The notes under the pieces are model-generated. The model saw only the letters and a list, made by a program, of their open reading frames with translations, made no database searches and was not told where the DNA came from. A stretch of 64,000 nucleotides of DNA from an uncultured Gammaproteobacteria bacterium (lineage in GTDB: Bacteria; Patescibacteriota; Microgenomatia; UBA8517), in the NCBI GenBank assembly GCA_964599625.1, contig CAZRGC010000001.1:51019-115018 (forward strand), in the 5' to 3' direction. Below are positions 13,277 to 36,512 of this stretch, one piece after another. Positions within the stretch are counted from its first letter, which is position 1. Every line of letters starts with the position of its first letter. The translations under genes and the position numbers were made by a program.

Positions 13277-13284
13277 ATTTCTTC

Positions 13285-13512: not shown

Positions 13513-13568
13513 ACAAGTAAAACTAATTTATACTAAGTTAACATAAAGAAATTTAAGAAACAAGCAGA

Positions 13569-14654: not shown

Positions 14655-14871
14655 CGATCTATATCAAGCGGTAGCTCTCAAAACAGCAGGAATGCCGTTA
14701 CTTCGGCTGGAAAAGTCCTCGGGACACTTCTACATTTTCGTGTTCGATGATCCAAATAACAAAGCAGAAGAGATTTTGTCGCAATTTTGGGCCAAGACAT
14801 TACAAGTAGATGCAAAAACGTTTGTTGAAAATATAAATGAAGCTAAGGCACGCATTCATCAAGGCCTATGA
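14623..14871 (+). CDS. small hypothetical protein (phage-like)
   Basis: 82-aa ORF overlapping both neighbours in a compact phage-like arrangement. Confidence 0.25.
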   Translation: MNMKNTEYKSNDLYQAVALKTAGMPLLRLEKSSGHFYIFVFDDPNNKAEEILSQFWAKTLQVDAKTFVENINEAKARIHQGL

Positions 14872-15470: not shown

Positions 15471-15821
15471 CGTCAGAGAGAATTTGGAAAATTTTACCGA
15501 GGCATTTTAGCCTGAGGATACCTGGCGAGGGTAGCCCTGCAAGTCCGCAGTGATCGAGAAGCACTATAATAGCCGATTGCAGATAGCCCACCTGATTGAA
15601 GCGAGGGTATACGAAATATAACACAAGGGAAGACGTTGGGAAGAATGAAAAAATGTCTGAGACGATCTAGTGTTACGCACCATGCACTCGTCCCTTCTGC
15701 ATGTATCATCGGCAGTTTAGGTTAGATGGTTGGCTTAAACCTTCCGAGAGAAAACGGAGAAAAAGGTTGAAAATACCCTTTTTTCCTTCCTATCGCTCGG
15801 GTTCCGAAATATACATAATTT

Positions 15822-19591: not shown

Positions 19592-19593
19592 AT

Positions 19594-20322: not shown

Positions 20323-21074
20323 TTTGAGTTTTTTATCGCTTCTCTTGCTTTATTTTTTACAGCACTTTTTTCTGTTTGTGTTAATAGATCAGAAAGGATA
20401 TTTCCCGAGTTGGCAGGATCGACTAAATAGGAATCTAAAGGATTATCGTTGTATTTAGCCAGTTCCGTTAAAACATGCCACGCATTGTTTCCTAGTTTGT
20501 CAATTCCAGTAGGGTAAAATTTCAGGATGTTAGTAACTATTAAGTATTCAAGATAGATTGATGGAAATTCAAGTTTGTTAAGTTCTCGCCACACCTTAAG
20601 GATTTTTATTTCATTCGTCCTACCCGAATTAGAAATGTCGTCTATATGTTTTTGAATATTAGTCTGTTTCCTCGTGTCTTGCTTAGAAACATATAGCCAA
20701 TGATCGTTAGTGTATCCAGGTTGTTTCCGTGCAGGTGTAACGTCTACCATTAAGCCGTTAAGGTTTAATCTTATGGAAACATTTTGTTTTCTAACACCAC
20801 TATAAATACTACTGATTTTTGAATATAGTGATTCATAAATCCCTTTTAATCCACCAGTATTTTCATTGCAATTGCTAGTTAATGAAACGAGATAATCTAC
20901 ATCTGACGCAATTGATATAGCTGTACCTTTAGCTCGTGATCCTGAGTCCAAAATATCTAAATAGCAAGTATTTGCCCATGTCTTTAGAATTGATTTCAGA
21001 GTGACAATTGAACTCGAATAGGGTGATAAGTTTCGTGCCTGGTATTTTAATAAAATTTGTTCAAGATATGTCAT
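20301..21074 (-). CDS. CD-NTase/SMODS-like nucleotidyltransferase
   Basis: SGSRAKGTAISIASDVDYLV matches GS...GT...SDhDh. Downstream LMVDVTPAR matches the third-Asp DVhPA motif of the OAS/cGAS/CD-NTase families. Confidence 0.5.
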   Translation of the reverse strand: MTYLEQILLKYQARNLSPYSSSIVTLKSILKTWANTCYLDILDSGSRAKGTAISIASDVDYLVSLTSNCNENTGGLKGIYESLYSKISSIYSGVRKQNVSIRLNLNGLMVDVTPARKQPGYTNDHWLYVSKQDTRKQTNIQKHIDDISNSGRTNEIKILKVWRELNKLEFPSIYLEYLIVTNILKFYPTGIDKLGNNAWHVLTELAKYNDNPLDSYLVDPANSGNILSDLLTQTEKSAVKNKAREAIKNSNWNQIVW

Positions 21075-21075
21075 A

Positions 21076-24000: not shown

Positions 24001-24588
24001 AACAACCTCGACGCTAAACACTTTTTCCAAATCGGTTAGGGTAGGGGGAGCATCTTCTTTTATAAGTGTCGGTATTAATTGTTTTTGGGCCGTATGAGTG
24101 TTTTCGTTTTCGCCAACCAAGAAGGAAAATCGTTTGGCAGGGGTTAATTCGGTGATTGTTTTAAGTCGCCCTGCATCAGATTTGCCCAATCGGTATTCCA
24201 TTTTGACTAGCGATAACCGCCAGTCGGTAAGATTTGGTGGCACAAAAGCAACTATTGCCGCATCTTTTGCGTCTCTATTTTTAAGATAATCCGCTACAAA
24301 ATTTCTTTGCGTAGTTCTAGCTCTTTCGAGAGTTTCATTTTTTTCAAGGTAGACAGCAAGTATATCTATTTTGTTGTTATCAGAATCAGTGAAAGTTCCA
24401 AAGCGTTCATATGTTTTTATTGTAGGGTTAGTTTTTTTGAATTTATCTTTAACATATCCATGAGCATGGAATGCTTTTGTTTCGTCGAATTTCCTAAAAA
24501 GATTTTTTGTGAAGATCAAGAAGCGATCCCGATCGTAAGGGTTTTCAAATGTACTTTTGACTAGGTTGATTGCTGATTGTTTGTTCAT
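21076..24588 (-). CDS. large gamma-class N6-adenine DNA methyltransferase (PglX/Eco57I/DrmMI-like)
   Basis: Motif I VCDPAVGSGAFLVGMM. LYGVDIDPGATEIAKLRLWLSL. Motif IV VIANPPYVSAW. About 450-aa N-terminal and about 350-aa C-terminal (TRD-like) extensions. Confidence 0.85.
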   Translation of the reverse strand: MNKQSAINLVKSTFENPYDRDRFLIFTKNLFRKFDETKAFHAHGYVKDKFKKTNPTIKTYERFGTFTDSDNNKIDILAVYLEKNETLERARTTQRNFVADYLKNRDAKDAAIVAFVPPNLTDWRLSLVKMEYRLGKSDAGRLKTITELTPAKRFSFLVGENENTHTAQKQLIPTLIKEDAPPTLTDLEKVFSVEVVTKEFFEKYKQLFLETKEALDKIVKADPQIENDFKDKNIETIDFTKKLLGQIVFLYFLQKKGWFGVEMGKDWGTGSKTFLRDLFDGKVLAYENFFNDVLEPLFYDALARDRSDVDHFNPLFKCKIPFLNGGLFDPISGYSWTDTQINLPNKLFSNKNTTKEGDTGDGILDIFDRYNFTVKEDEPLEREVAVDPEMLGKVFENLLEVRDRKSKGTYYTPREIVHYMCQESLVNYLATELEGKAEKEDIETLVQIGEAAVEHDTRVTEIGEETDTYSYKLPESIRNNAKQIDDALASIRVCDPAVGSGAFLVGMMTEIIRVRNTISSYFVDGDRSIYAFKHHAIQHSLYGVDIDPGATEIAKLRLWLSLIVDEQDIKKIKPLPNLDYKIMQGNSLLEEFEGIKLFDEDLFTKSVFDNTAQIESLKAKISELSREFVQLYQKGEFTGIKKQQIEAELQKNNKALKKLTDKPKPTIENTGLFDQESEAKEKAKDLKRLQKEFFNTSHKKEKDQIKKRIESLTWELIEATLREQGKESLMTQVEKYKKANIRPFFLWKLNYSEVFENKGGFDVVIANPPYVSAWQMEKDDPEMRKIIKAGLKEYPFLTGHWDLYVAFVALGHKILGFNGAISFIVPNPILKEKYAKAVREFLLNNMALDNILEFTDINVFENVSRRTTVFVATKRVLKNYSINIFGNKETNGEIVLLNTVNNKLWLQQPTHQFVLSINNTEEDLLKKLENKSARFGNYFYVNYGVQPSSKVKGKFSKSDVVNNVPVGNAKRFFEGKDVHRWHVSYRGLWLDYRKEDMYGSRSPELFENEKIAIRKVSDKGHRIAAAYDNSKMFTDDGNVLVVPYASLNGSELKTNFSGYKLLEEKLDLKYALAFLMSKLQQFYYRKRFATESLQGSTSHTYPSSVRGSLIIPKPPAKQNIIIELVDEILKLSKNINLENTEIRKLETYIDQKIYELYDLTPEEIAIVEEK

Positions 24589-27500
24589 TCACTTATTAGA
24601 TATTCTGACAATATAACTTCCCTTGGCCCTGCTACCTGAGCCGAACTTTCAGCCAGAGTTTCTTTGAAAAACTCCGAGGGAATACTGACTTTGAGAATCG
24701 ACAATAGCTTTAATGGGTTGAATTTTTCACCTAATTCTTTATTTAGTAGTTTGAGTAAGTCCTTGGCAGTCCGTTTTGGCAATGCCCCTTCCTCTAAAAT
24801 CCTAATAACACTATTGATATATGCCTCGTCCTCGTCTGTAAAACCTTTGAAGTATTTAATCTCTTTAGATCGGAGTATTTTGACTATTTGAACCAAACTA
24901 TCTCGGCCTTTTTTGGATTGAACCTCCTGTGCCTCTTCTGTCGTTGTTTCGACAAACGCCTGTTTGTTCATAGCTAGTAGATCGTAGAAATCCTCGCCGA
25001 TATTTTCCCGTTTGGTATCTTTGTTAACCTCCAATAGTTTTGCTGCTGTAATGAAGTCTAGTTCGTTGGCTTCCTTGTCTGCCGAATAGAACTTTTGCAA
25101 TTTGCCCTTACGGAAAAATGTCAGCAGGCTATTATGTTTGCCGTCGCTATATTTTCTTGCGGTTCTGGCTTTTTTAGGTAGTCTTTTGATCGTTTCAAAC
25201 AGATCTGGATTGTTATCCCGAATATCACGAATGATATGTAGATATTTCAAATCGCTCTCTTCGCTCTCATCCTCGCCAGTAATCGTTTCCTTAGATGTAA
25301 GTTTTAACCAAAGATCGTGGGATTTAATTTCCTCACCTTCGGTTAGTAGTTTTGCATCTGCACCAAGTAGTTCAATAAATGCTTCAATTTTTGCTTCGGC
25401 TGCCTCGTTTAATTTGATCTGATCGTTTGATTGTTGTGTTGGGAAGAAATTGTAGGTGTAAATCTTTTCGTGTTTAGTATCGACTCGATTGATACGCCCT
25501 GTCCGTTGCATCAGCCTGGTTGGATTCCAGGGAATATCATAATTGATGACGCAATTGGATCGATGTAAATTGACACCCTCTGACAGAACTTCTGTTGCGA
25601 TCAGGATTCGGTAGTCATCGTGTGGAAATCTGGCTTGAGCGTCAAAATTCTCAATGACTTTTTCTCTAATGACTGCCGATGATCCTCCGTGATAGGCCAA
25701 TACCTGATCGGGGAATTTCTGGCCAAGGTTTTTTTCTAGATACTCGGCGGTTTCCTTTGATTCGGTAAAGATAATAAGTTTGTTGTCTTGTAATACCTTT
25801 TGGCTTGAAAGTGCATCAATAAATTTTGCTAGTTTAGGATCTCGATTGATCCGACGCCACATTTTTGCAATATCTCGCAAAATATTTAAGTCGTTTTCCA
25901 AATCTGTCTTGAATGTATCCTCAAATTCTGTCGATGAGTAGCGTTGCGCCTTATCTTCATCTATTAATTTTTGAATGGCTACTTCATCATCATTGTCTAG
26001 TAATTCAAATATCTTACTGATATGTTTTTTGCTGACATAAACATTTCCTTTATCAAATTCGGCAAGGAAACTCTCGTATGAGGATATAAACCGATCCAAT
26101 GTATTCCTAAATGCAAAGAAGCTACTTTCAAGCCGTTTAACTAAAAGGATTTTCATAAATCGGCCCATGTTCTTTTGTCCTTGTTCTTCACCTTGGGGAA
26201 TATCGCCTTTGTAGTACAGAAGTGGCATATAACGGGCGTATTTGAATTTTTGGGCGATCAACTCAATTGTCTTGGTGAAAATTTCATTCTCTTCATCATC
26301 TAATTCGTAAAACAATGGCTCGGGATCGGCCACATCGGGGAATCGTAGTTTTTGTTGTGCCAAATCTTTGCCAAAATACTTAACAATTTCCGATCTGGTT
26401 CGACGAACCATCAAATACTTAAGTACCTTTTCCCGAATATCGCTTGCGTTTTGACGTACTGTTTCCAAATACTCACTGCGGTTAGTTTTGCGATCCAAAT
26501 CTTTAAGTTTTTTCTCCAGTCCCGAGAAAAACATTTCAAGGTTGGGTAGGTTTGGAATAGTACTCTTTTTGGCCTTTTGGAATAGTTTAATCTGGCTCAA
26601 TATATCCTTGGGTGAATTGTTGTAGGGTGTGGCCGTAACCAAAATGACTCTTTTCCCTCGGCAAATCTGGGCTAGTTTTTCATAGGTAACATTATCTTCT
26701 GTTCTAAATCGGTGGGCTTCGTCAATAAACACATTTTTATATTTATCGGTGCCTCTCTCTGCTAATTTTTCTAATTTTCCTAATGATTCAAAATCTGCCG
26801 ATACCTTAAAATCTGAAAACACGTTTGGCCATGAACCTGGGTTATCACGATCGAGTAGCACAGGTGGGGCAATGACTAAATTTCGGCCATCAAGTTGATT
26901 GGCAAGCATGGCAGAAATGTATGTTTTACCCAAACCAACAACATCGGATAGGAAAACACCCCCATACTCTTCTAAAATCTTTTTAGCGTTCAATACGGCT
27001 TGTTCCTGATACTCTAGTTTTCTGAATTTCTCTGGTGTGTATTTATAGAATACGTCTTCGGTACGGCTAATCTGATCCTTGAAGTATTCGTATAGGAATT
27101 TTAAGTAGAGTTGGTAGGGAGTAATTGTATTGTTTAGCCATGTCTTGTCATTGACTGTTTCAATATATTTTTCGGACACATCAACGGAGTCTTTCCAAAG
27201 ATCGTTAAATTTATCCTGTGCGAATTTATGATCTGAAGCAGTCTTTAGTTCAACGTTGAATTCTAGATTGTCAGCTAGTCCTTTTTGGGAAAAATTGCTT
27301 GATCCCGTGATAACTCTCCCAACGTCCCGATCTCCCTCTTTGAATGTGAGAATGTATAGTTTGGCGTGGATGTTTGCCGTAGGATATGCCCGAATCTCTA
27401 ACTTGCCGCTTTTAATCCATTCAATGAATTTTTGAACACCTTTTTCGATTGTTGGGGTGTCTTCCGAATCTTCAAGCTCCGATGCTATTAAATTGGAAAA

Positions 27501-27773
27501 CTCTTCTTTAGCCTCTACATGGGAAAAACTCAAACTTAATTGCTCTTCGGCTGCTCTAATGTTTTCAAGAGTATCTCTTCCTGTGCCTATACCTATTAGA
27601 ATTCTGATTTTTTCGGTGTTTTCGAGTACAGGGTAGAGCTTATAAAACCCGCTAGAGTAGAAATAACCAACCAGTACATCAAAATATCGGGTGTCTTTTA
27701 TCAAAACACGGAACCGCTCCAAAAGACTTTGATTGTTCTCGTTGGTTATGAATGTTAAATCTGTATTATTCAT
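24585..27773 (-). CDS. PLD-family nuclease domain fused to SNF2-family helicase
   Basis: N-terminal HKD motif HAKLYILTF...GRVITGSSNFS. SNF2 motifs GLGKTYISAML, DEAHRFR and LVTATPYNN. Helicase-C motif QRTGRINRV. Confidence 0.85.
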   Translation of the reverse strand: MNNTDLTFITNENNQSLLERFRVLIKDTRYFDVLVGYFYSSGFYKLYPVLENTEKIRILIGIGTGRDTLENIRAAEEQLSLSFSHVEAKEEFSNLIASELEDSEDTPTIEKGVQKFIEWIKSGKLEIRAYPTANIHAKLYILTFKEGDRDVGRVITGSSNFSQKGLADNLEFNVELKTASDHKFAQDKFNDLWKDSVDVSEKYIETVNDKTWLNNTITPYQLYLKFLYEYFKDQISRTEDVFYKYTPEKFRKLEYQEQAVLNAKKILEEYGGVFLSDVVGLGKTYISAMLANQLDGRNLVIAPPVLLDRDNPGSWPNVFSDFKVSADFESLGKLEKLAERGTDKYKNVFIDEAHRFRTEDNVTYEKLAQICRGKRVILVTATPYNNSPKDILSQIKLFQKAKKSTIPNLPNLEMFFSGLEKKLKDLDRKTNRSEYLETVRQNASDIREKVLKYLMVRRTRSEIVKYFGKDLAQQKLRFPDVADPEPLFYELDDEENEIFTKTIELIAQKFKYARYMPLLYYKGDIPQGEEQGQKNMGRFMKILLVKRLESSFFAFRNTLDRFISSYESFLAEFDKGNVYVSKKHISKIFELLDNDDEVAIQKLIDEDKAQRYSSTEFEDTFKTDLENDLNILRDIAKMWRRINRDPKLAKFIDALSSQKVLQDNKLIIFTESKETAEYLEKNLGQKFPDQVLAYHGGSSAVIREKVIENFDAQARFPHDDYRILIATEVLSEGVNLHRSNCVINYDIPWNPTRLMQRTGRINRVDTKHEKIYTYNFFPTQQSNDQIKLNEAAEAKIEAFIELLGADAKLLTEGEEIKSHDLWLKLTSKETITGEDESEESDLKYLHIIRDIRDNNPDLFETIKRLPKKARTARKYSDGKHNSLLTFFRKGKLQKFYSADKEANELDFITAAKLLEVNKDTKRENIGEDFYDLLAMNKQAFVETTTEEAQEVQSKKGRDSLVQIVKILRSKEIKYFKGFTDEDEAYINSVIRILEEGALPKRTAKDLLKLLNKELGEKFNPLKLLSILKVSIPSEFFKETLAESSAQVAGPREVILSEYLISE

Positions 27774-27795
27774 TTTCTTAATTCTCTTTTTTAAT

Positions 27796-27993
27796 TTACA
27801 CCTTAGGGTGTCTAGATATATATGCCTCTATGTCCGCCTTTCTATATCGACGATCTCCAACACCTCTACGTGTACCAATTCTTACCGCTTTTAGGATTCC
27901 TTGTCTATCCCAACGCCTAAGTGTTTGCGGTTTAACATTCAGGATTTTTGCTGCCTGATTTAATGTTAGTAGTTCCTCTAGTTCTGAATTCAT
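27796..27993 (-). CDS. excisionase/AlpA-family HTH DNA-binding protein (paralog of 13285-13512)
   Basis: LTLNQAAKILNVKPQTLRRWDRQGILKAVRIGTRR aligns residue by residue with the other HTH protein. It is the first gene of the 12-kb minus-strand operon. Confidence 0.6.
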   Translation of the reverse strand: MNSELEELLTLNQAAKILNVKPQTLRRWDRQGILKAVRIGTRRGVGDRRYRKADIEAYISRHPKV

Positions 27994-28329
27994 ACTAATT
28001 GTCTTTAATTGTACTAAATTGCAGGGAAAAAAGGTAGATTATCGGGTAGGGAAAATGGGAAGGGGATATATAATCCTTATCGGCGTTTTTTGGTAGTGTG
28101 CAAATGTGTAGACTCACAACTACACATTTAGCCTTAAATCGGAAGACTACATAGACTATATATAGTAGTTGGCTAGTATCCCAACATATATTTATTAGCT
28201 ATAACTAGGGATATTAATTGGTATCAGCTATACTAGTAGAAGATTCCGTCCAATTTCGATTGAGTATTTTTAAGTAAAATCGAGGGGAGGGAGTAGTAAA
28301 ATTGAAAATGTGGGGTAAGTGGATCGAAA

Positions 28330-28376
28330 GCTAGCATCATGCCAGATAGGCATGTGTGGTACCCTATATGCTAGCA
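28330..28376. promoter_or_regulatory. nested palindrome: GCTAGCAT ... ATGCTAGC enclosing CATGCC-agata-GGCATG and GGTACC
   Basis: Perfect 8-bp inverted repeat with a 31-nt spacer that contains a 6-bp stem hairpin. It lies between the island end and the 3' end of the MoxR-like gene. Confidence 0.3.
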
Positions 28377-28413
28377 TTTCAAAAAGTGCCATTTTCCCAA
28401 GAAGGCCCCTTAA

Positions 28414-30102
28414 TTATTTGCGAGGAACTATCAAAGGTAATGCAACAACTTTTTGATGTGTTGCAGTCTCTTCAAACGATATTCCCCTATACGATCTATC
28501 ACTTTCTTTTCTTACAACCGAGCTTCTATTTTGCTCGCCCTCGTAAGTTGTGGATGTTCGGAAATGTAAGTTTCTTTCTGTCATAAGTGTTGACAGTGTG
28601 TTTTCCCCTGATTTATCTTCTTCTTCAAAGATGGCAATATAGTCTGCAGCTGACCCAAGCATGATTCTGAGACCTGATACGTCCAGATCGTTTGCCCATT
28701 CGTTTATAAGCTGCATCTGGTCATTTGTATTCATGTCTTTAGTATTCATTATGTTAAACGCTATTCTCTGGGGAATCGCCACATCACCCCTTATTCCTTT
28801 TTTATGCCGGGAGAAGTTTATCTCGCCAGTAATTTCAACTCCTTGGGCCTCCATCTCACTCAATGAATTCCCATCTAAGCTATATATTGTAAATCCCATT
28901 CTTTCCAACTCTTCTCTTTGTTCAGTGCTAAATCTTGGAGTTTTGTCTTTTTTTTCTCTGCTCTCGGCAAGGCCTTGCCTTTGTGAAAAGGATGGTCTTG
29001 GCGGCTTGTATACTACTTGCTCAATTGCTTCATTAAGCTTGTTGCGGTCGCTTACACTTTCGAGTTTGTTGGCATAATAATAGCGCAATGCCTGCTGCAT
29101 GGTTTCGGTTATATCGCCGTCATAAAACCTGGCTATGTAATCCCTGACTCTGGTTCTTTCCATTTGATCATCAAAGCTGAATCTCTGGGGCTGGTCAGCC
29201 CCGACTTTTCTTTTTTCTGCTTGCAATTTGGCGTTGCTATGAAACTCCTTATATAGTGCCAAGATTTCCTTTATTCCCGGTATTTCGGCAATTTCTTCTC
29301 TTGTGAGCGCTTTATCTCTTGATTCATATCTTTCAATATTCTTAGCTGCTCCCGGTTTTTCCATAGGTGCAAGGCCAAAGGCTGCATCAACAGCATATGC
29401 AAACGTATCTTTGGGAAGTCCAGCCGGGGCTTTCATGTAAACCCATCTTCTTAATTGAGCTGGGTCAAGGGGTTCCTTGCCAAAAAATCCCTGCCCAGGA
29501 GTGTTGCCAAGAGCAATCAGTTTTGTAATTCCTCTGTCTGTTCTTATTATTTCTGTACCTTCTTTTTCTTTAATCACAACTCGACCGTTGGACTGAAGGG
29601 CGTCATGGACCTCGTGAAGTCTTACAAGTATATTTGCTTGAGCGGCGTTAAACTCATCAAGAATAATAATTTTAACTTTTCCCGGCTCTGGCCTCAATCC
29701 GCTTGTTATTTTTCCATCTACAAATATATGTTCAGGGTCGTTATTTGTCTTTCTGTTTGGGTTTGGTACCCAACGGCCCATCAACTCCTCTGTGTCGGAC
29801 TGGCCGTTTAGGTTGTTGTAGTGAACTTCCCAATTAAGTTCCGCTGCCATTTTTTTAATAGTTGTAGTTTTTCCTATACTAGTGCCCCCCTCGATATACA
29901 TAGGGTCTCCTAAAAGCAAAGAGACAGCTACTTCTCTTTGAAACTGGAGAAAAAATTCATCAGCATAATATTCTTTTGGGGGATCGGGGACAAATACTTC
30001 TGATGCCACTTTTGCTCTGGGGAGTCTTACTCCCATGTAGTCCACATGATTTTCGGCGACAAATACGCCTACATCAGTCCTTCGTTCAGTGTAGCTGTCC
30101 AT
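28414..30102 (-). CDS. MoxR/AAA_5-type AAA+ ATPase with about 250-aa C-terminal extension
   Basis: Walker A GGTSIGKTTT. Walker B KIIILDEFNAAQANILVRLHEV. Last gene of the minus-strand operon. Confidence 0.65.
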   Translation of the reverse strand: MDSYTERRTDVGVFVAENHVDYMGVRLPRAKVASEVFVPDPPKEYYADEFFLQFQREVAVSLLLGDPMYIEGGTSIGKTTTIKKMAAELNWEVHYNNLNGQSDTEELMGRWVPNPNRKTNNDPEHIFVDGKITSGLRPEPGKVKIIILDEFNAAQANILVRLHEVHDALQSNGRVVIKEKEGTEIIRTDRGITKLIALGNTPGQGFFGKEPLDPAQLRRWVYMKAPAGLPKDTFAYAVDAAFGLAPMEKPGAAKNIERYESRDKALTREEIAEIPGIKEILALYKEFHSNAKLQAEKRKVGADQPQRFSFDDQMERTRVRDYIARFYDGDITETMQQALRYYYANKLESVSDRNKLNEAIEQVVYKPPRPSFSQRQGLAESREKKDKTPRFSTEQREELERMGFTIYSLDGNSLSEMEAQGVEITGEINFSRHKKGIRGDVAIPQRIAFNIMNTKDMNTNDQMQLINEWANDLDVSGLRIMLGSAADYIAIFEEEDKSGENTLSTLMTERNLHFRTSTTYEGEQNRSSVVRKESDRSYRGISFEETATHQKVVALPLIVPRK

Positions 30103-30104
30103 GG

Positions 30105-30518
30105 TTATTTTCTAAAAGTAAGACCAACCTTGTCCATGATTAGAAATCCGTCGTTTTCTGATTGTTCTAAAGCGCTCTTTGTAAATATCAGAAGTACGCC
30201 AAATTTTCCTCGGTTAGGTTTTATTACTTCAGGGCGCATCTCGTCTTCGTTGAATGTCTCAATTTGTCCTGTGGGGAATTGAACTAAGATATCATAAACT
30301 TTCTTGGACAATTTTTCGTTTACAACGAAAAAGGTACTCTTTTCCGCTGCAATATTTTCAAAGAAACTGGTATCGGTTTGGGATTCAGCAAAACCATAAC
30401 CTGTCAGAGCACCGCCGATTTGCTCTATTTCATCGGTTCCATCTACAACTGCCAGACTCACTTCATTCTGGCCACTTGTACAGCTCAAGAATTGTTCAAA
30501 ATTTTTTATCTCTTTCAT
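30105..30518 (-). CDS. hypothetical protein sandwiched between the vWA and MoxR genes
   Basis: 137-aa ORF, 2 nt before the MoxR gene and 13 nt after the vWA gene. Confidence 0.4.
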   Translation of the reverse strand: MKEIKNFEQFLSCTSGQNEVSLAVVDGTDEIEQIGGALTGYGFAESQTDTSFFENIAAEKSTFFVVNEKLSKKVYDILVQFPTGQIETFNEDEMRPEVIKPNRGKFGVLLIFTKSALEQSENDGFLIMDKVGLTFRK

Positions 30519-30531
30519 AATACTTATTACA

Positions 30532-32640
30532 TCATACGTAACTCCCGACTATTTTGCGAATTGCATTTGCCAACTCGTCTGGAATCTGTTGGACGTTTGA
30601 AGCTATAAAATAATTTTCAAAATATTCTTTCATAAATCCGGTTCCCGGACCTATGCCGCCACCTATGACTTTTTGATTCCTGCCGGCTTTGGCTTTTTCT
30701 ATTTCTGTCTTTAAATCAAAAGCACGCCTTGGACTGTCGCTTGGCAGATCTGGTCTGCCGTCGCTCAGAACTATCATTACTTTTTCTTTTTGGACTTGCC
30801 TTGCCAGCCTATCAGAACTTTGGTTAACTGCCCAGCCTGTGGCGGTGCCCCATTTCCTGTTACGTTGTGAACGGATTGGTATTTCCAGCATATCCTCCAT
30901 TTTTACACGGATATCATCTGACATCTTTTGGCCGAATTCCTGAAAAACAAACATGTCTGTATTGTATGCAACAACCTCCAAATTTATTGAAAGCCTGTTG
31001 AGAACTTCGGTCAATACAACAACCCCTTTAAATGTTTCCAGAATTTTGTCATCCTCAAGCATTGAAGTTGTTACATCTACAAGCAAAGTAAATGCGTAAT
31101 CTTTTTCCAGGGGTAGCTTTCTTCTTTGCCATGCCTTACTTTCCATAACAGAAACGCCGCGGACTTTCTCTTGGATTCTCTTGGGAATGTCTACCCGCCT
31201 TCCGGTTTTGTAGCCGGTTTGCAGATGACTTTCTCGTCTTTTGGAGAACAGTTCTCTTAGGTCGTTTTCTAATTTGTCTATTATGGGCATAAGGTCCGTA
31301 CGGATCCTTTCGTACTTTGTTTCGTCTGTGCCGAATATTTCCAGAATTTTTTGTTTGAATCTTTTGGTTTCTTTATCTATCTCTTCCTGAGATTTTTTGC
31401 CTGTATTTTCATCGTTTTGTTTTGCGTTCCCCTCGGTTCCATTGCCGCCTTTGGCTTGTGACTCCGAATCGTCTTTTGGTGCATTTCGCATCTCGTCTGG
31501 ATTTTCGTCCATCATTCCTTTGATTTCTCTGTTTATATCTGACTCCAAAATCTTCATTTTTTCTCCTGCCCTTTGCCTCAATTCTTCCTGTTTGTGTGCA
31601 GGAAGTGATTTCAGATGTTCTCTTAATTTCTGCTTCAATTCTTCGGAAAGCGATTCAAGATCTATGGGTGTTGTGGTATTTTCTTCTTCACTTGTCTCCT
31701 GTCTTTCGTTTTCAGACATTGCTTTCTCCATTGCCTCGACGAGTTGTTGAAGCTGTTCTTCTGTTAACTTTTCTGCAACATCTTGGGGAATCGGTTGCTC
31801 AGATCCTTGCTGTGACTTCGAATCTTCCATCATGTCATTTAACATTTCGGATACACCTGCATCTTCTAGATCTTTTTTGATTAGTTCTTCAAATTCCGGC
31901 CAGACCTGACTATCTATCGTCTCTCTTGCACCCCGTGCATATTTTTTAATGACATCCCCACTTTGGTCGGCTTCTTTTTTGGTGGGATATTTCCACCAGG
32001 TGTCATGTGCGCCTTTTTCAATTTTTGTCATAGCACGGGAAACATCCTCACTCAAAGTTTCGGGTGGTTGTCCAGGAGTTTCTCTTATCTCACTGTACCA
32101 CTTGCGTGTCAGCTCATTACCTGCTTGTATAAAACGAGGGATGAATCCAAGTTGTTCGTGGGCTGTTGCTGTTGTTTTTGATTCAACAATTTTTCCTGCC
32201 CTTTCTGCTTCTTCAAGATGTTCGCTGATTTTGGGATAGCCCTCTGCTACAAAATTAGTTGATCTTGCACCTTCCAAGACATTGGTAAGATACTGATAGC
32301 CTGGTTTCTCCCATTGGTCTTTTGGTATATCTCCTAGTCTGGAAATCCTAAGTCTGCCGCTTTGAGTGGCAACTTTGTAGCGTAATGAATCGAGGCTTTC
32401 GTTAACAAGGTCGTTGGGGTCTGCAATTATTTTTGTTCCTTGGACGTCACCTTCCCATCCGGATCCTGGGTCTCCGATTTCCACAGGAACACTAAAATTC
32501 TTGCCTACAAAGTGAGCCAAGGAGGAGAGCATGTGTCTTCTTTCACCAATAGTCGCACGTTCTTGCGAGGTAAAGTTTTCAAGAGGGTCTTTGCGTAAGT
32601 TTTCGGATTCTTGTTCGGGTCTTTCGGCTTTTTCAGGCAT
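30532..32640 (-). CDS. vWA-domain protein with long acidic coiled-coil linker
   Basis: C-terminal vWA: TLLVDVTTSMLED (DxSxS), then VMIVLSDGRPD. Central region rich in E and K (EELKQKLREHLK...). Confidence 0.7.
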   Translation of the reverse strand: MPEKAERPEQESENLRKDPLENFTSQERATIGERRHMLSSLAHFVGKNFSVPVEIGDPGSGWEGDVQGTKIIADPNDLVNESLDSLRYKVATQSGRLRISRLGDIPKDQWEKPGYQYLTNVLEGARSTNFVAEGYPKISEHLEEAERAGKIVESKTTATAHEQLGFIPRFIQAGNELTRKWYSEIRETPGQPPETLSEDVSRAMTKIEKGAHDTWWKYPTKKEADQSGDVIKKYARGARETIDSQVWPEFEELIKKDLEDAGVSEMLNDMMEDSKSQQGSEQPIPQDVAEKLTEEQLQQLVEAMEKAMSENERQETSEEENTTTPIDLESLSEELKQKLREHLKSLPAHKQEELRQRAGEKMKILESDINREIKGMMDENPDEMRNAPKDDSESQAKGGNGTEGNAKQNDENTGKKSQEEIDKETKRFKQKILEIFGTDETKYERIRTDLMPIIDKLENDLRELFSKRRESHLQTGYKTGRRVDIPKRIQEKVRGVSVMESKAWQRRKLPLEKDYAFTLLVDVTTSMLEDDKILETFKGVVVLTEVLNRLSINLEVVAYNTDMFVFQEFGQKMSDDIRVKMEDMLEIPIRSQRNRKWGTATGWAVNQSSDRLARQVQKEKVMIVLSDGRPDLPSDSPRRAFDLKTEIEKAKAGRNQKVIGGGIGPGTGFMKEYFENYFIASNVQQIPDELANAIRKIVGSYV

Positions 32641-32682
32641 TCACATTAGTTTACACCGTTAACCAATTAAACTGTGTGAGAA

Positions 32683-32934
32683 TTATGGTAGCTCTTTCGC
32701 ATTAAAGTAACCTGAGTTGAAGTTAAATTTAAGGTTTTGCAAAAATTTTATTCCGTCAGTTGGAAACAATTTGGTGCCACTTTTAGCGGAATAATCTAAA
32801 ATGCCGTTTTCTTTTATATATTTTACGAACTGGGCATCGCCTGCTGCGCTTACTTGTCCGTCAAGCAAAACAAAACTGGCGAATTCTGTTTGCTCGCCAT
32901 TGTTTTCAAGTTTGTAAATAATTACCTCGTTCAT
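32683..32934 (-). CDS. small hypothetical protein
   Basis: 83-aa ORF, 6 nt downstream of the PI-kinase-like gene. Confidence 0.3.
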   Translation of the reverse strand: MNEVIIYKLENNGEQTEFASFVLLDGQVSAAGDAQFVKYIKENGILDYSAKSGTKLFPTDGIKFLQNLKFNFNSGYFNAKELP

Positions 32935-32940
32935 ACTGGC

Positions 32941-33711
32941 TTAATAGGGGTGATACCTAAAACTTTCCAGGTCAGACTCTCTAATCTTACCGCTTCTTAG
33001 TTTTTGGTTAACAGTTGATACTCTGGCAAACATAGCATCAATTGCTTGCTGGGGGATGAGTGAAGACATTACATTTCTTAGTTTGTTTTGCCTTTGGGTA
33101 TTTGACATAAAACTTGCATATCGTTCTGAAACCTCGGGAGGTACAAGTTTTCCGATAACGTGTTCTTCCAAGTTGCTTGTAATGTTATATTGCCGCCAAT
33201 TATCAAAAGAAAGTCCGTTGTCTATAGCTATTATTTTCTTTTCTTTGACAAAATAGTTTGCTGTTTTCCTATCTTTGTTCCAAATTGAGTAGTCAAAAAG
33301 TGCTAACTCAAAAAGTTGCCTTCTCATCATGGGATCTGCTATGTCTGCATCCCAAATCGAAGTTTTAGGATCTTGAACGAAATCTTGAATACTGCCTTCG
33401 CGTCCGCCGACTTTTTTGATTGTAGTTATGGGCACCAAGTCTGGGTGTAATGCCTGCGAGACTTCAAAAGCAGCGACCTCGCGGAGATAAAGTTTGTATT
33501 GGCTTTCCTCTATTTCCAAAGGATCTTCGCCGTCCCCGGGTTTAAAGACTCCGTTTCCGTCACCCCTGAGATATATAAGCATTACAGTGTTGCTTCCTCC
33601 GGAAAGTCGTCTTGTTTTTTCGTGATCAACTTCTAGGTCCCTTAACTGTATATACCTTTCTGAAGTTATTTCCGGTTGGAACGGGGTGTCTCTTCCTTGT
33701 AATACATCCAT
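32941..33711 (-). CDS. PI3/PI4-kinase-family (type II PI4K-like) atypical kinase
   Basis: SGGSNTV glycine loop. GVFKPGDGEDP corresponds to the FKPxDEEP lysine motif. DRKTAN catalytic loop is of the DRHxxN type. IAIDNGLSF is DFG-like. Confidence 0.5.
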   Translation of the reverse strand: MDVLQGRDTPFQPEITSERYIQLRDLEVDHEKTRRLSGGSNTVMLIYLRGDGNGVFKPGDGEDPLEIEESQYKLYLREVAAFEVSQALHPDLVPITTIKKVGGREGSIQDFVQDPKTSIWDADIADPMMRRQLFELALFDYSIWNKDRKTANYFVKEKKIIAIDNGLSFDNWRQYNITSNLEEHVIGKLVPPEVSERYASFMSNTQRQNKLRNVMSSLIPQQAIDAMFARVSTVNQKLRSGKIRESDLESFRYHPY

Positions 33712-33718
33712 CTGAAGT

Positions 33719-34276
33719 TTATTGACCCTTCTTTTGAGCCTCTTCTACCAAATCTCTGATCCCTCTTTTTTGGAGGGCAAGAAGTTTGATGTTTCCCCAT
33801 TCACTTAACTCAACGTTTTCAAACTTTCTTACAAAGGTTTGATCATCTTGACAACGGATAAGATCATCAACATCATCCGGTAAATCCGAGTGGCACCATG
33901 AGTCGCGAAGTGAGTCAAACACGTTTGGTGTCATAATGCTACTACCCTTCATTGCTCTCAGAAGGACAGAGAAGACTGGGTCTAATCTGTAAAGCTCGTC
34001 ACCGTTCTGAAAAACAGACTCGGGGTCTATGATGTCAATATTTTCGCGAATTGTATCTATGTATTTATTTACTGTTTCAAGCGCTTTTCCTTCCCATTGT
34101 TTTGGTTCGGATTCCCATCCAAGTCCACGTTTAAAGTCCGTGAACTCTCTATCTATAGTAGAAAGTTTTCTTATCATTTGTTCTACAGAGCGCTCACCCT
34201 TTTCACTTTCATTTCTTCTATCGAATTGGTCCATAAGAAAAATATATATACACGGTACAAATAAATCAAGTAGCAT
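33719..34276 (-). CDS. hypothetical protein (first gene of the minus-strand operon; start may be 34234)
   Basis: 185-aa ORF with no motif recognised. Confidence 0.4.
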   Translation of the reverse strand: MLLDLFVPCIYIFLMDQFDRRNESEKGERSVEQMIRKLSTIDREFTDFKRGLGWESEPKQWEGKALETVNKYIDTIRENIDIIDPESVFQNGDELYRLDPVFSVLLRAMKGSSIMTPNVFDSLRDSWCHSDLPDDVDDLIRCQDDQTFVRKFENVELSEWGNIKLLALQKRGIRDLVEEAQKKGQ

Positions 34277-34307: not shown

Positions 34308-36512
34308 ATGAATATGGAGTTGACACATAGTACAAGCATCAAAGACTCGGTCCCTGTTAGGACTGCACAAGTACTAATGGACCCATTGAGAAGTTTGGGC
34401 TCGTACAGTCTGTACAAGCTTTCACAAGGGCGACTTAGGCCCGAACTTGGTCAGTTTTTTGGCCCCAAAGAAGAAGTCGAAGATGCAATTGACAATGTGC
34501 AAGTCACTCTTGATGGGATAGACGCGCGACTTTCGGGCGGTGAGAATTTTGTCAACAATTTATACATACATTGGAGTGTTGCACGAGATCAAATGGAGGA
34601 AGTAGTGGGAAAGAAAATTACTGAATATGTGCTTTTCGACAAAAAAAGCGGCAGGCATATGTTGTTTGCAGAAGATGGTGATCAGATGTTTCCCATACTG
34701 CTTCCGGGTAAAAACGATGTTGGGGCAGTGGAAAAAGGCCTTTTTGGACTGGGGGAACCGATTACAAAAAAGGACTTTCAGTCTGAATCTGTTTCCAGAG
34801 AAGTGGCAATAATGGAACTTGCCTCGCAGGAATATTTTGAAGGGGAAGAAGTTAGCCTTAGGAGAATAAATTCGGTTTGTAACGAATTTGAACTCAGACG
34901 CCACGCGGTTTTTGAAAGGGATGGTGAGATGTTTGAAAATCTGAGATCGATGGGTGCTATGAGTATAGGTGAACTGCAAACTGTTACCAGATATATGATC
35001 TCTTCAGGTTTGAGTTTTGAAGATGGAGCGGTAAGAGTCGACCCTTCATACGAGGCTCTTTGGATAAGTGCGCGGGTGATATCTTTGGGAGAGGGTGACG
35101 CGGCTGCCTACGAAGCCCAGGCCGAAAGAGAACTTAACGAATTTGTACAGCAGGTAGTTTATTTTAGAGCGGTTGATGCATATCTTTCTGAAAACCCCGG
35201 GATTGTCAGAGATTTTTACAAGTCAGATGTCTATCTTAAGCACAGGAAGGATTTTATAAATTCACATCTGAGTGCAAAAGGGAGAACCGAAGAAGACACA
35301 GCGAGAGCAATGCTTGCTAATTACTGTCTAAATAAGTTTGAAGGCAAAAGTACTACGGATTCACCATCGCTCAAATATATGAAACAGGGTGGCGAATTTG
35401 TCTCCGATATTGAACATTTTTTGGCTGGCTCAAATCTCAAAATTCCATCTGACCTGGCGGACTTGATGGCGTCGCTTCAGGTAAATCTGTTTGACAAAAA
35501 AGTAAGCAGTTCCGAAAAAGCAAGAGTACTGAAAGAGGGTGGCGAATCTTTGAGTAAGATACTTACAGAAATGTGGAGACACAAAGAAACCAGAAAGATA
35601 TATGAATCTTTGGCCAAACTGTCTCCTTTTGATTTGATAGACGACGATCAAAAATCATCCAAAGTTTTCAGAGTTATTATTGGAAATTTGGGTTTGTCGA
35701 GAGTTCCGGGTGAGGGTAGGTTTACAATGGCCAGTTATTTGAACAAGGCACCATATTACCCGGAAGGTTCCGAGGTTTTACCGTTCGACGAAGGGGACGC
35801 TTTATACGATGATGTTAAAGACTCTATTAAACATATATTTAACGGCAATGTTTTCCAGGGAGATCCCGGTGTAGAAAGTGCCTATGAATCTCAGGTTGCA
35901 AGAATTTTTACTGAAGGTTCCACAATTCTTAAATATTTATCCGAAGATCCGAGAGTGCCCCAGAAAGTTAGAAATTTTATCAGAACAATCCAAAACGGCG
36001 ACGAGCTTTCGTCCAGAATCATGGAGAGATATGGTTCTATTTCCGACCAAGACCCGCAGATAATAAACAGATTTTTTTCTGACGGATTTGAAAGGTTTCA
36101 GGTCATGACTGTTCATCGTTATGTCACAGACTTTGTCAGGGGTGTGGAGACAAATTTGATTATGGCAACAAACAAGAGTTGGCTTGAAAGAACAAAAAGA
36201 AAGACGGTAGGGAACTGGAAAAACTACGATTTCTCCCAGCTACCCGATGAAGTTATAAACGAAGCTATCGATAAAACACTGGCTGACGCCGAACATAGAC
36301 TTGATGTTTTGAATCACCAAACAACCCAAAGAACAACCCTGAAGGATAAACAGGAAATGTTGGAAAAAGTGTTTGGGTGGAACACTTATGATATGTGGTT
36401 TCTTAGGTGGGAAAAATTTTGGAATGTCTGGAACACTTTGGGTGGGGCTTGGGACTGTGCATGTTTTATGAGAAAGCCAATATTTAACCCGGGCACCTTC
36501 AAGCAGTATTAA
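34308..36512 (+). CDS. hypothetical protein (734 aa)
   Basis: Long uninterrupted ORF divergent from the MoxR-vWA operon; no motif recognised. Confidence 0.5.
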   Translation: MNMELTHSTSIKDSVPVRTAQVLMDPLRSLGSYSLYKLSQGRLRPELGQFFGPKEEVEDAIDNVQVTLDGIDARLSGGENFVNNLYIHWSVARDQMEEVVGKKITEYVLFDKKSGRHMLFAEDGDQMFPILLPGKNDVGAVEKGLFGLGEPITKKDFQSESVSREVAIMELASQEYFEGEEVSLRRINSVCNEFELRRHAVFERDGEMFENLRSMGAMSIGELQTVTRYMISSGLSFEDGAVRVDPSYEALWISARVISLGEGDAAAYEAQAERELNEFVQQVVYFRAVDAYLSENPGIVRDFYKSDVYLKHRKDFINSHLSAKGRTEEDTARAMLANYCLNKFEGKSTTDSPSLKYMKQGGEFVSDIEHFLAGSNLKIPSDLADLMASLQVNLFDKKVSSSEKARVLKEGGESLSKILTEMWRHKETRKIYESLAKLSPFDLIDDDQKSSKVFRVIIGNLGLSRVPGEGRFTMASYLNKAPYYPEGSEVLPFDEGDALYDDVKDSIKHIFNGNVFQGDPGVESAYESQVARIFTEGSTILKYLSEDPRVPQKVRNFIRTIQNGDELSSRIMERYGSISDQDPQIINRFFSDGFERFQVMTVHRYVTDFVRGVETNLIMATNKSWLERTKRKTVGNWKNYDFSQLPDEVINEAIDKTLADAEHRLDVLNHQTTQRTTLKDKQEMLEKVFGWNTYDMWFLRWEKFWNVWNTLGGAWDCACFMRKPIFNPGTFKQY

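Follow-up and report, generated by a model that had tools for sequence, protein, structure and literature searches.

The question raised by this locus is whether six closely packed genes on the minus strand, g1 to g6, constitute a single system. The window, i.e., the whole stretch of DNA analysed here (64 kb), had been described in a sequence-only reading as containing a six-gene operon led by a kinase-like gene. The domain calls of that reading hold, although they are weak for two of the genes. The physical part of this description holds as well: the six ORFs are co-oriented (Table 1), the successive gaps from g1 to g6 are of 7, 6, 42, 13, and 2 nt, and no terminator-like site was found on the minus strand within the run. 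All six ORFs are genuine genes, since each has conserved homologues elsewhere and the dN/dS values relative to a sister strain range from 0.017 (g6) to 0.068 (g4) and 0.070 (g5), the last three genes being under strong purifying selection. The status of operon fared less well: what the data show is shared orientation and close spacing, and the genes split into two modules that are independent in other genomes. Judging from sequence comparisons, g1-g6 are two unrelated conserved modules that stand juxtaposed: a kinase trio (g1-g3, module A) and a triad (g4-g6, module B). We regard it as probable that the two modules are independent and that module B is a copy of a triad of ultra-small (CPR) bacteria and DPANN archaea that has lost its diversity-generating retroelement (DGR).

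Table 1. Features of the locus and its surroundings, with positions in the window.
Feature	Positions	Strand	Size	Description
Island flank, left	11598-11608			TGGCATTTCTT
Defence island	11609-28380		~16.8 kb	Integrated serine-recombinase element (Pfam, PADLOC, empty site in L081)
Large serine recombinase	11708-13276			Within the island
Island flank, right	28381-28391			TGGCACTTTTT
Region downstream of g6	27994-28413			No g6 3'-end repeat, no Avd or reverse-transcriptase remnant; island from 28380 leftwards
g6	28414-30102	minus	562 aa	CobS/NorQ-like AAA+ ATPase
g6 C-terminal domain	28417-28947	minus	residues ~386-562	Separate alpha/beta domain; no variable repeat
g6 AAA+ module and conserved helical region	29008-30060	minus	residues ~15-365
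g5	30105-30518	minus	137 aa	Small middle protein of the triad
g4	30532-32640	minus	702 aa	vWA partner of the triad
g4 vWA domain	30652-31086	minus	residues 519-663	Pfam VWA, E 1.8e-5
g4 degenerate HExxH site	32353-32367	minus	residues 92-96	T-Q-S-G-R
Seam between modules A and B	32641-32682		42 nt	Between g3 and g4
g3	32683-32934	minus	83 aa	Kinase module, third gene; no family
g2	32941-33711	minus	256 aa	Putative kinase, PI3/PI4-kinase-like / SCO1664-family (HipA-like fold)
g1	33719-34276	minus	185 aa	Kinase module (module A), first gene; no Pfam family

Homologues of g6 are numerous (more than 400, with 50-58% identity over the N-terminal ~370 aa) and belong to Patescibacteria and one DPANN archaeon. 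Orthology of this N-terminal part to the family is supported by 42-58% identity and E values of 1e-120 to 1e-130. We found 68 genome loci, spread across many CPR classes and one Micrarchaeota MAG. The vWA, small-protein, and AAA genes were all present in about 70 of 74 loci, and they followed each other in this order in 55 of 58, as they do in the window. This layout, on which the earlier reading had remarked, is a conserved signature. The triad is an accessory element with a patchy distribution: its flanks vary between loci, and the upstream neighbours are mostly housekeeping or heterogeneous. None of the canonical triad proteins was matched in PADLOC. As a separate observation, HEPN genes and recombinases recur beside some triads.

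Module A has a different distribution. Homologues of g1, g2, and g3 were found in none of the 74 other ATPase-bearing loci, and the three genes form a self-contained trio, devoid of vWA or AAA gene, in Woesebacteria-type genomes (L078-L080). There, homologues of g1 lie directly upstream of the kinase gene (E values of 6e-50 in L078, 1.5e-46 in L079, and 1e-17 in L080) and homologues of g3 lie downstream of it (6e-23 in L078 and 1.8e-15 in L079). The proposal that the kinase-like gene leads the system is contradicted on both counts, since the trio occurs without the triad and the triad without the trio. The 42-nt gap between g3 and g4 is the join of modules that stand apart in other genomes: the g3 homologue of L078 and L079 is followed by an opposite-strand FKBP or NUDIX gene, and in L005 an opposite-strand fn3-like gene lies upstream of the vWA gene. 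The sister strain L083 alone preserves the junction, and with it the six-gene order. These co-occurrence data refute the six genes as a conserved system. The six genes may nevertheless be co-transcribed in the window species, and a local functional link between the modules may exist, because the run has no internal terminator and L083 keeps the order.

The assignment of g2 to the PI3/PI4-kinase family stands in part. A match to Pfam PI3_PI4_kinase (PF00454) is present, but it is weak (E 1.9e-5, 25.1 bits, below the gathering score of 27.1) and covers profile positions 136-211 only. The protein also matched Pfam HipA_2 (E 4.5e-4) and, under the family cutoff, NCBIfam TIGR03843 (SCO1664 family, 4.5e-19). 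Inspection of the translation by eye revealed K57 in VFKPGD, a catalytic-loop-like D147-R-K-T-A-N152, and D164-N-G. A word-indexed search returned only 9 homologues of g2. From these matches and neighbourhoods, module A appears to be a lineage-restricted trio around a small putative PI3/PI4-kinase-like (SCO1664-family) kinase. It is part of the local core synteny in Woesebacteria-like CPR genomes, alongside a divergent 734-aa protein.

Within module B, g4 comprises an N-terminal domain of ~250 aa, an acidic/coiled middle, and a C-terminal CobT-type vWA domain with MIDAS-like residues (D522-V-T-T-S526 and D627). CobT_C was matched by 34 of 35 members of the vWA-partner family, whose PDB matches were CobT (3.6e-18), the midasin MIDAS domain (3.4e-10), and NorD (8.9e-6). 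An H-E-x-x-H motif, followed by a conserved 'AIEDPRxNNF' stretch, is found in 61 of 65 family partners. The domain that carries it had no match in Pfam or the PDB; the motif suggests that it is zincin-like, with a putative peptidase activity in the relatives. This site is degenerate in g4. L005, which shares the DGR-less clade with the window, lost the motif as well, as did L048 and the outlier L074.

The sequence-only reading had likened the middle protein to VMAPs, the accessory proteins of vWA-MoxR conflict systems. VMAPs combine three parts (PMC7159879): an enzymatic or EAD domain at the N-terminus, a VMAP-M region, and the VMAP-C domain, which has ~7 strands and 6-7 helices. In 55 of 58 loci, a member of the g5 family (~136 aa, with the shared motif Q-[YF]-P-[TS]-G-Q) separates the vWA gene from the AAA gene. 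Neither g5 nor a 44-member g5 profile had a match in PADLOC, NCBIfam, Pfam, or the PDB. The first three gave no match for g1 and g3 either, and thus no VMAP homology. We therefore rejected g5 as a VMAP-like protein, since it matches no model of these databases and its 137 aa are too few for a tripartite architecture.

The ATPase g6 belongs to the MoxR class of AAA+ proteins (CobS/NorQ/CbbQ-like). It matched AAA_5 at residues 74-219 (E 8e-12), both of its Walker motifs are intact (A, G72-GTSIGKT-T80; B, D149-E150), and the Walker A/B and arginine columns are invariant in the family. The best Foldseek matches of its AF2 model were NorQ (E 8e-14, TM 0.79) and CbbQ, and its sequence matched CobS and midasin in the PDB. 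The 250-aa C-terminal extension described earlier as unusual must be divided: the helical region up to residue ~365 is conserved family-wide, and residues ~386-562 are the separate folded domain (AF2 pLDDT 79, pTM 0.79). The last ~90 residues of the latter are modelled as strand-helix-helix-strand (x4). This domain sits where most relatives hold a DGR-diversified domain, reported to be C-type-lectin-like. Its model had no significant fold match in the PDB or BFVD, C-type lectin CRDs appearing only at E ~1, and its alignment by hhalign to DGR-type C-termini had a probability of 0.2, i.e., no detectable homology. Given a W-x-N...S-G...G-S-A stretch aligned by MAFFT and the strand-helix succession of the model, the domain might nevertheless share its origin with the diversified one and have diverged very far. 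This type of C-terminus was found only in P0001-P0004, P0006, and P0095, to which 1.84 billion representatives add just the fragment P0258.

Among 51 assessable loci, 36 (71%) had a DGR sign of some kind, the ATPase gene ending in the variable repeat. Adenine-biased template/variable repeats were found in 34 loci; all 19 mismatches of L001 and 17 of the 18 of L003 fell at template adenines. DGR-bearing loci have the template repeat, Avd, and reverse transcriptase right after the ATPase gene. According to Dore 2024 (PMC10907252, citing Paul 2017), AAA-ATPase-CLec is the most common architecture of CPR DGR targets. In Wu 2018 (PMC5758913), the UVR4 targets match the midasin AAA domain and are left unclassified. 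AAA-ATPase DGR targets of CPR are thus already known, and the window copy is probably a DGR-less variant of that ATPase family. The profile of the relatives' VR domain, a putative C-type lectin, had no match in the PDB.

In the window, the last 330 nt of g6 are not repeated anywhere in the 64 kb, a comparison that did detect repeats in 34 relatives. With more than 70 RT and Avd sequences of the relatives as queries, jackhmmer and tblastn gave no match in the window better than an E value of 0.01. A trans-acting DGR may lie elsewhere in the genome of 335 kb or more, of which 64 kb were searched, although the 3' end of g6 has no VR-like repeat. DGR-bearing loci occur across the entire NJ tree. 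The rare clade of the window (the window, L081/L083, L006/L082, and L005), all of whose members are DGR-less, is nested among them on a long branch. On this evidence, the window copy is a rare derived variant that lost the DGR, carries a different and non-variable C-terminal domain, and lost the HExxH motif in its vWA partner.

The defence island had been noted as lying directly beside the six genes. The physical adjacency is confirmed. Besides its recombinase, the island encodes two HTH_17 proteins, a trypsin-like protease, GmrSD/HEC-05, a CBASS-type cyclase with a NucC-like effector, a type IIG restriction-modification gene, and an HKD-Snf2 helicase. But the sister strain L081, whose ATPase is 99% identical to g6, has an empty site and no island. 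The island is a later strain-specific mobile insertion, outside the system, and its adjacency to g6 is hence incidental.

These data can be set against three other explanations. The first is one operon of six genes acting against phages, organised like the vWA-MoxR-VMAP ternary systems, with the PI4-kinase-like signalling protein at its head and a functional tie to the island. It would fit the close co-directional spacing without internal terminator, the order preserved in L083, the HEPN genes and recombinases recurrent near some triads, and the proposed role of DGR-coupled vWA-MoxR ternary systems in conflicts. It is nonetheless quite improbable, given that g1-g3 are missing from all 74 other triad loci and stand alone in L078-L080, that g5 is too small for the VMAP architecture and showed neither VMAP homology nor any other match in PADLOC or NCBIfam, that canonical triad proteins fall outside PADLOC, that the island is absent from the sister strain, and that upstream neighbours are mostly housekeeping or heterogeneous. 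Even less credible is a decaying remnant, i.e., a DGR-less triad turning into functionless pseudogenes. The long tree branch, the missing reverse transcriptase, Avd, template repeat, and HExxH, and the replaced or shrunken C-terminus all point that way, but the ORFs are intact and of constant length in at least four diverged relatives (49-99% identity), the dN/dS is low (0.017-0.070), the residues of the Walker A/B, sensor, and MIDAS sites are still in place, and the C-terminal domain is confidently folded in the predicted model.

A housekeeping chaperone pair of the MoxR/CobS-CobT type, inserting metals or cofactors or remodelling an enzyme as CobST, NorQD, and CbbQO do, with no role in conflict, deserves more attention. 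The nearest relatives in sequence and structure are indeed CobS/CobT, NorQ/NorD, and CbbQ, selection is strongly purifying, the C-terminal domain is fixed in the DGR-less window clade, and many housekeeping genes lie in the flanks. Yet we consider this reading unlikely. In 71% of the assessable relatives a DGR hypermutates the ATPase C-terminus, which fits the recognition of variable ligands and not of a fixed client. The scores are far from those of the known families (21.5 bits for g6 against a TIGR01650 cutoff of 558, and 38-50 bits for the relatives' vWA proteins against 759 for TIGR01651). In none of the inspected loci does a CobN, NorB/C, or Rubisco gene adjoin the triad, and neither CobN nor other cobalamin pathway genes were found in the window or among the neighbours of 50-plus loci. 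CobST, NorQD, and CbbQO lack equivalents of the conserved small protein and of the HExxH domain, and the distribution is patchy and accessory, with flanks that differ by locus. The sequence-only reading was right to set the locus apart from the classical housekeeping pairs in which MoxR precedes vWA.

Under the preferred explanation, two independent modules with a DGR-less triad, a mechanism can be proposed for the triad. In most members, the DGR rewrites ~120 nt at the end of the ATPase gene, so that the ATPase ring would display hypervariable binding domains. By analogy with the solved NorQ-NorD and CobS-CobT assemblies, the ATPase would form a hexamer and engage the vWA protein. The C-terminal domains would capture ligands, and ATP-driven remodelling would couple this capture to the vWA protein with its zincin-like domain, whereas the small protein could be an adaptor, a regulator, or a substrate. 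Such a sensor-switch-effector logic would resemble that of DGR-coupled vWA-MoxR ternary systems. The data show the gene content, its conservation, the DGR linkage of the relatives, the losses in the window, the selection, and the insertion of the island; the contact between hexamer and vWA protein, the sensing of ligands, a peptidase function of the relatives, and a biological role of any kind are inferred. The window copy is most likely a hard-wired AAA+/vWA remodelling complex of fixed specificity and without peptidase activity. In its full form, the model describes a programmable intracellular machine, an AAA+ ring with six DGR-diversified receptors, a small adaptor, and a vWA-tethered zincin protease, of which the window clade would have fixed the specificity, discarded the retroelement, and turned the protease into a non-catalytic scaffold. 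It is speculative and rather unlikely as a whole. If true, it would provide matched natural variants to dissect signalling by DGR-diversified ATPases in episymbiotic bacteria.

How does the locus compare with known systems? The putative kinase g2 resembles SCO1664-family (TIGR03843) and PI3_PI4_kinase-like small kinases by its weak but consistent profile matches and its catalytic-loop-like DRxxxN and DxG, but it scores under the curated cutoffs, and its companions in the CPR-specific trio are two small proteins devoid of annotation. The triad shares with VMAP-ternary vWA-MoxR systems (Kaur, Burroughs, Iyer & Aravind 2020, PMC7159879; DGR-coupled cyanobacterial and Thiohalocapsa versions in Dore et al. 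2024, PMC10907252) the three-gene logic of a MoxR-class AAA+, a vWA protein, and a third protein, and its relatives share the frequent DGR coupling and a peptidase-type domain, putative in the triad. The resemblance to conflict systems noted earlier thus extends to the ATPase/vWA pair and the DGR coupling but not to a VMAP: the triad has no VMAP-C homologue and its third protein has ~136 aa. Furthermore, its diversified domain is on the ATPase and not on the vWA protein, its vWA protein is CobT-type with an N-terminal zincin-like domain instead of C-terminal effector arrays, and it occurs in CPR and not in multicellular bacteria.

The CobS-CobT, NorQ-NorD, and CbbQ-CbbO pairs provide the best matches in sequence (CobS, CobT) and structure (NorQ, CbbQ). 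As the Walker and MIDAS residues are intact in the window, their mechanism of an ATPase ring with a vWA adaptor is the natural template. The triad differs by its inverted order (vWA first), its extra middle gene, a C-terminal domain of ~180-250 aa on the ATPase, putatively for recognition, the family's HExxH domain on the vWA protein, the lack of a linked client enzyme gene, and scores far under the cutoffs. Finally, the AAA-ATPase DGR targets of CPR and DPANN (Paul et al. 2017 via PMC10907252; UVR4, PMC5758913) differ from the window copy, which has no DGR or variable repeat, a C-terminal domain that is not detectably homologous, and no HExxH. They probably belong to the same ATPase family, the window copy having 50-58% identity over ~370 aa to proteins with demonstrable variable repeats at their 3' ends, and the conserved upstream vWA and small-protein partners and the phyla are common to both.

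The minus-strand run of six genes (g1 to g6, see the table) is borne out by the predicted ORFs, with intergenic gaps of 7, 6, 42, 13 and 2 nt. The sequence-only reading had taken this run for a kinase-led, six-gene system of the VMAP type, linked to the neighboring defense island. We reject this reading of g1-g6. Instead, the last three genes, encoding a vWA protein (g4), a small protein (g5) and an AAA+ ATPase (g6), are a derived variant of a triad found across the Patescibacteria (CPR), which lacks a diversity-generating retroelement (DGR) and whose ATPase is of a known class of DGR targets.

Features of the six-gene run and of the adjacent island, in window coordinates
Feature	Coordinates	Strand	Product, match or remark
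g1	33719-34276	-	185 aa; no Pfam match
g2	32941-33711	-	256 aa; sub-threshold Pfam PI3_PI4_kinase match; Pfam HipA_2 match
g3	32683-32934	-	83 aa; no Pfam match
g4	30532-32640	-	702 aa; Pfam VWA, C-terminal, residues 519-663
g5	30105-30518	-	137 aa; no Pfam match
g6	28414-30102	-	562 aa; Pfam AAA_5, residues 74-219
734-aa protein gene	34308-36512	+	no Pfam, PHROG, PADLOC or NCBIfam match
Island, ~16.8 kb	11609-28380		missing from sister strain L081
Large serine recombinase, at one island end	11708-13276		Resolvase + Recombinase + Zn_ribbon_recom
Two HTH_17 genes	within island
Trypsin-like protease	within island
GmrSD/HEC-05	within island
CBASS-type cyclase and NucC-like effector	within island		1.6e-82, 6e-75
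Type IIG restriction-modification enzyme	within island		2e-243
HKD-Snf2 helicase	within island
Island flank	11598-11608		TGGCATTTCTT, imperfect 11-bp direct repeat
Island flank	28381-28391		TGGCACTTTTT, imperfect 11-bp direct repeat

The search for homologues of g6 returned more than 400 proteins, mostly of 640-770 aa and with 50-58% identity across the first ~370 residues, from Patescibacteria and one DPANN archaeon. When 1.84 billion representatives were searched exhaustively with phmmer, about 100 clusters came out at E <= 1e-30. A scan limited to a single genome for each species gave 68 loci, from Paceibacteria, Saccharibacteria, Zambryski-, Berkel-, Gottesman-, Levy-, Doudna-, Falkow-, Dojka-, Peregrini-, Magasanik-, Moranii- and Howlettbacteria, and from one Micrarchaeota MAG. 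ORFs were then called in 74 loci and searched with the window proteins. Around 70 of the 74 have the vWA, small-protein and AAA genes, and the order vWA, small, AAA is found in 55 of the 58 unique loci with all three (directly adjacent in 49 of the 55). Gene order is thus conserved for the triad, but the full g1-g6 order is kept only in a sister-strain locus (L083), whose proteins are 89-99% identical to those of the window. Three loci (L063, L067 and L071, the latter basal on the tree described below) have the order small protein, AAA, (DGR), vWA, with the vWA gene downstream, so the vWA-first order is not absolute. There was no fourth conserved partner among the 103 upstream neighbors surveyed, which are heterogeneous: six HEPN_LA2681, three or four serine recombinases and otherwise housekeeping genes.

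Two unrelated loci of homologues (L001 and L003) revealed the link with DGRs. Both encode a CobT_C-vWA protein (699-755 aa), a small protein (136-151 aa) and an AAA_5 protein, in that order. Directly after these come a bAvd gene on the opposite strand and a reverse transcriptase. A second copy of the final ~120 nt of the ATPase gene lies 400-600 nt further downstream, and the mismatches between the copies fall on adenines of the downstream one (19/19 and 17/18). As this is the signature of DGR template and variable repeats, the C-terminal end of the ATPase of these relatives is a DGR-diversified domain. Across the 74 loci, around 38 have Avd and reverse transcriptase. An adenine-biased repeat pair was found in 34 of the 51 unique assessable ATPase genes, and any sign of a DGR in 36 (71%). 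We built a neighbor-joining tree from the conserved N-terminal region of the ATPase. DGR-bearing loci are on all its major branches, including basal ones, and DGR-less loci are scattered, a distribution that fits an ancestral association with repeated loss. Among the DGR targets of CPR bacteria, AAA-ATPase fusions are reported to be the commonest architecture (Dore et al. 2024, PMC10907252, citing Paul 2017). The CPR 'UVR4' targets match the AAA domain of midasin, the fold of their variable region having been left unassigned (Wu et al. 2018, PMC5758913). The ATPase family hence belongs to an already known class of DGR targets.

Some loci have additional features. In L032 (4748-13928), the small-protein and ATPase genes are duplicated in tandem, so that the vWA gene is followed by small, AAA, small and AAA genes and then by Avd and the reverse transcriptase. 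Both ATPase 3' ends match a single template repeat with adenine-only mismatches, and hence one DGR serves two targets. In ten loci, an extra region of ~270-330 nt shares 63-95% identity with the 3' end of the ATPase gene, with mismatches lacking adenine bias; it lies downstream of the ATPase gene in L010, L024, L028, L029, L038 and L054, and between the vWA and small-protein genes in L049, L061, L069 and L070. This is probably an additional stand-alone paralogue of the ATPase C-terminal domain. In one sub-clade (L001, L012, L014, L015, L025 and relatives), an LA2681-like HEPN gene (E down to 8.5e-36) is directly upstream of the vWA gene, and serine recombinases are near the triad in several loci, which hints at a context of mobility or conflict in some lineages only. 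Finally, some loci with typical CPR triads and DGRs (L012, L018, L023, L031, L042, L057, L066, L073 and L074) belong to MAGs titled uncultured Gammaproteobacteria, Pseudomonadales or Bdellovibrionales. These MAGs are probably mislabeled bins.

To characterize the three proteins we used family profiles and structural models. CobT_C matches 34 of 35 members of the vWA partner family, whose profile matches in the PDB CobT (3.6e-18 and 3.3e-16), the MIDAS domain of midasin (3.4e-10) and NorD (8.9e-6). The family alignment shows conserved MIDAS-like residues (D522-x-[ST]-x-S526 and D627). Judging from these matches, the vWA domain of g4 is CobT-type. The N-terminal ~250 aa of the partner have no Pfam or PDB match. 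This domain contains a near-invariant 'ISHEGGHRRISR' (HExxH, in 61 of 65 partners), then 'AIEDPRxNNF', together a zincin-like signature. The g5 family has a conserved motif, Q-[YF]-P-[TS]-G-Q; a word-indexed homology search gave only two matches to g5, and a 44-sequence profile none in PDB or Pfam. The predicted model of the N-terminal ~330 residues of g6 superposes best on NorQ of NorQ-NorD complexes (E 8e-14, TM 0.79) and CbbQ, followed by Rea1/midasin, dynein and McrB. The Walker A, Walker B and arginine columns are invariant across the ATPase family, including in the window.

The window copy differs from the canonical members of the family, i.e., triads with a DGR-diversified ATPase C-terminus. 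In the 64-kb window, a repeat search found no second copy of the g6 3' end, and jackhmmer and tblastn found no reverse transcriptase, Avd or remnant of either. The g6 protein is short, its residues ~386-562 are common only to six homologues (P0001-P0004, P0006 and P0095), and the C-terminal domain has one other full-length cluster representative among the 1.84 billion. Modeled alone, this domain has a confident fold (pLDDT 79, pTM 0.79) with no significant neighbor in PDB or BFVD, C-type-lectin CRDs appearing only at E ~1. No relationship between the window-type and DGR-type C-termini was detected by hhalign (probability 0.2), and the profile of the DGR-type variable-repeat domain has no match in the PDB, so the label 'C-type lectin' for the diversified domain comes from the literature only. 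In a MAFFT alignment, a W-x-N...S-G...G-S-A stretch of the g6 C-terminus lines up with the variable-repeat domains, so the two may be very distant homologues. As for the partner, the H-E-x-x-H of the family is replaced by T-Q-S-G-R in g4 and by S-Q-A-G-R in L005, the closest relative of g4 with that region available. The window clade (the window, the sister-strain loci L081 and L083, L006/L082 and L005) is nested inside DGR-bearing clades, and its losses are therefore derived.

These changes did not lead to decay of the triad genes, since dN/dS values relative to sister strain L081 are 0.068 for g4, 0.070 for g5 and 0.017 for g6. The machine thus persists under strong selection despite the loss of the DGR, the replacement of the recognition domain and the loss of HExxH, which argues that the core of ATPase, vWA and small protein has a function independent of hypermutation. 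The divergence between the window and L081 is mosaic (1631-11608 and 28381-32676): dS is 0.006-0.056 in flanking genes, 0.82 in secA, 0.66 in g4, 1.78 in g5 and 0.33 in g6, and g5 is the most diverged protein (80% amino acid identity) when g6 is 99% identical. This suggests recombination around the triad.

The sequence-only reading had the operon led by a protein of the PI3/PI4-kinase family. The match of g2 to PI3_PI4_kinase is below the Pfam cutoff (E 1.9e-5, 25.1 bits for a cutoff of 27.1), and its NCBIfam match to the SCO1664 family (4.5e-19) is sub-threshold as well. Homologues of g1, g2 and g3 are absent from all 74 other triad loci, and an indexed search found only nine homologues of g2. 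The g2 homologue directly follows that of g1 in L078, which is a complete Candidatus Woesebacteria genome, and in the metagenomic contigs L079 and L080; in L078 and L079 the g3 homologue comes next (E 6e-50, 2e-79 and 6e-23 for g1, g2 and g3 in L078; 166-167, 260-269 and 82-85 aa in the two loci). None of these three loci has a gene for a vWA or AAA protein; in L078 and L079 the trio is followed by unrelated opposite-strand genes (FKBP, NUDIX). In L005, an opposite-strand fn3-like gene precedes the vWA gene. The 42-nt gap between g3 and g4 (32641-32682) is thus the seam of two modules; co-transcription of trio and triad in the window species is possible, if unconserved. Close same-strand spacing may conceal such seams between unrelated modules, which is a warning for annotation. 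The 734-aa protein gene adjoining the trio is divergent to it in both the window and L078; its homologues are beside the trio in L078 (E 2.5e-273) and a few genes away in L079 (E 2.5e-267).

The tie to the defense island did not survive comparison with L081, where the ATPase gene abuts a convergent secA: positions 1-4295 of this locus match 32676-28381 of the window, and 4285-14262 match 11608-1631. Since the island is missing from L081, its adjacency to the triad is incidental. Hence, a 'defense-island neighbor' may be a mere accident of mobile-element integration, a second caution for annotation. The insertion point is within the final ~10 codons of secA (window 8940-11705, L081 4263-6953). 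SecA has 921 aa in the window vs 896 in the sister strain, which means that the island encodes the C-terminal tail of the window protein beyond its SEC-C motif.

Ternary conflict systems of vWA, MoxR and VMAP have been described (Kaur et al. 2020, PMC7159879). HMM scans of g1-g6 and of canonical triad members with PADLOC, NCBIfam, Pfam and PHROGs gave no defense-system or VMAP assignment, only weak CobS/CobT, AAA_5 and VWA matches, and there was no meaningful PADLOC match among g1-g6. The match of g6 in NCBIfam is a weak one to CobS, and the PHROGs families are phage 'CobT' for g4 and phage 'CobS/porphyrin' for g6. Scans for Rfam families and for tRNAs found none in the window, and a promoter and terminator scan was uninformative. 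Elsewhere in the window, GC content reaches 0.50-0.56 at 6001-8000 and 54001-58000, for a background of ~0.40. These stretches have ORFs of 308, 654 and 306 aa without Pfam match, overlapping ORFs on both strands, and no rRNA or other Rfam match; the one at 6001-8000 is conserved in the sister strain.

To our knowledge, nothing is known about the role of the AAA-ATPase targets of CPR DGRs. The presence of genes encoding an HExxH-bearing CobT-type vWA protein and a ~136-aa protein before the ATPase turns this into a concrete question about a three-protein complex. Its best matches among solved structures, the AAA+/vWA pairs NorQ-NorD and CobS-CobT, provide the template for a mechanism. By analogy, the ATPase most likely forms a ring and engages the vWA protein in this form. 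With a hypervariable binding domain on every protomer of canonical members, and a putative zincin on the vWA protein, the simplest reading would be ligand-gated, ATP-driven control of the latter. The small protein could be an adaptor, a regulator or a substrate. For the window clade, we propose a non-proteolytic remodeling complex of fixed specificity. By itself, the window locus is of moderate interest, and the architecture of the family, with its HExxH-vWA partner, small protein and DGR-diversified AAA+ protein, is the more interesting lead. Ligand-gated control in the triad would parallel the sensor-transducer idea put forward for the ATPase targets of CPR (Dore et al. 2024, PMC10907252).
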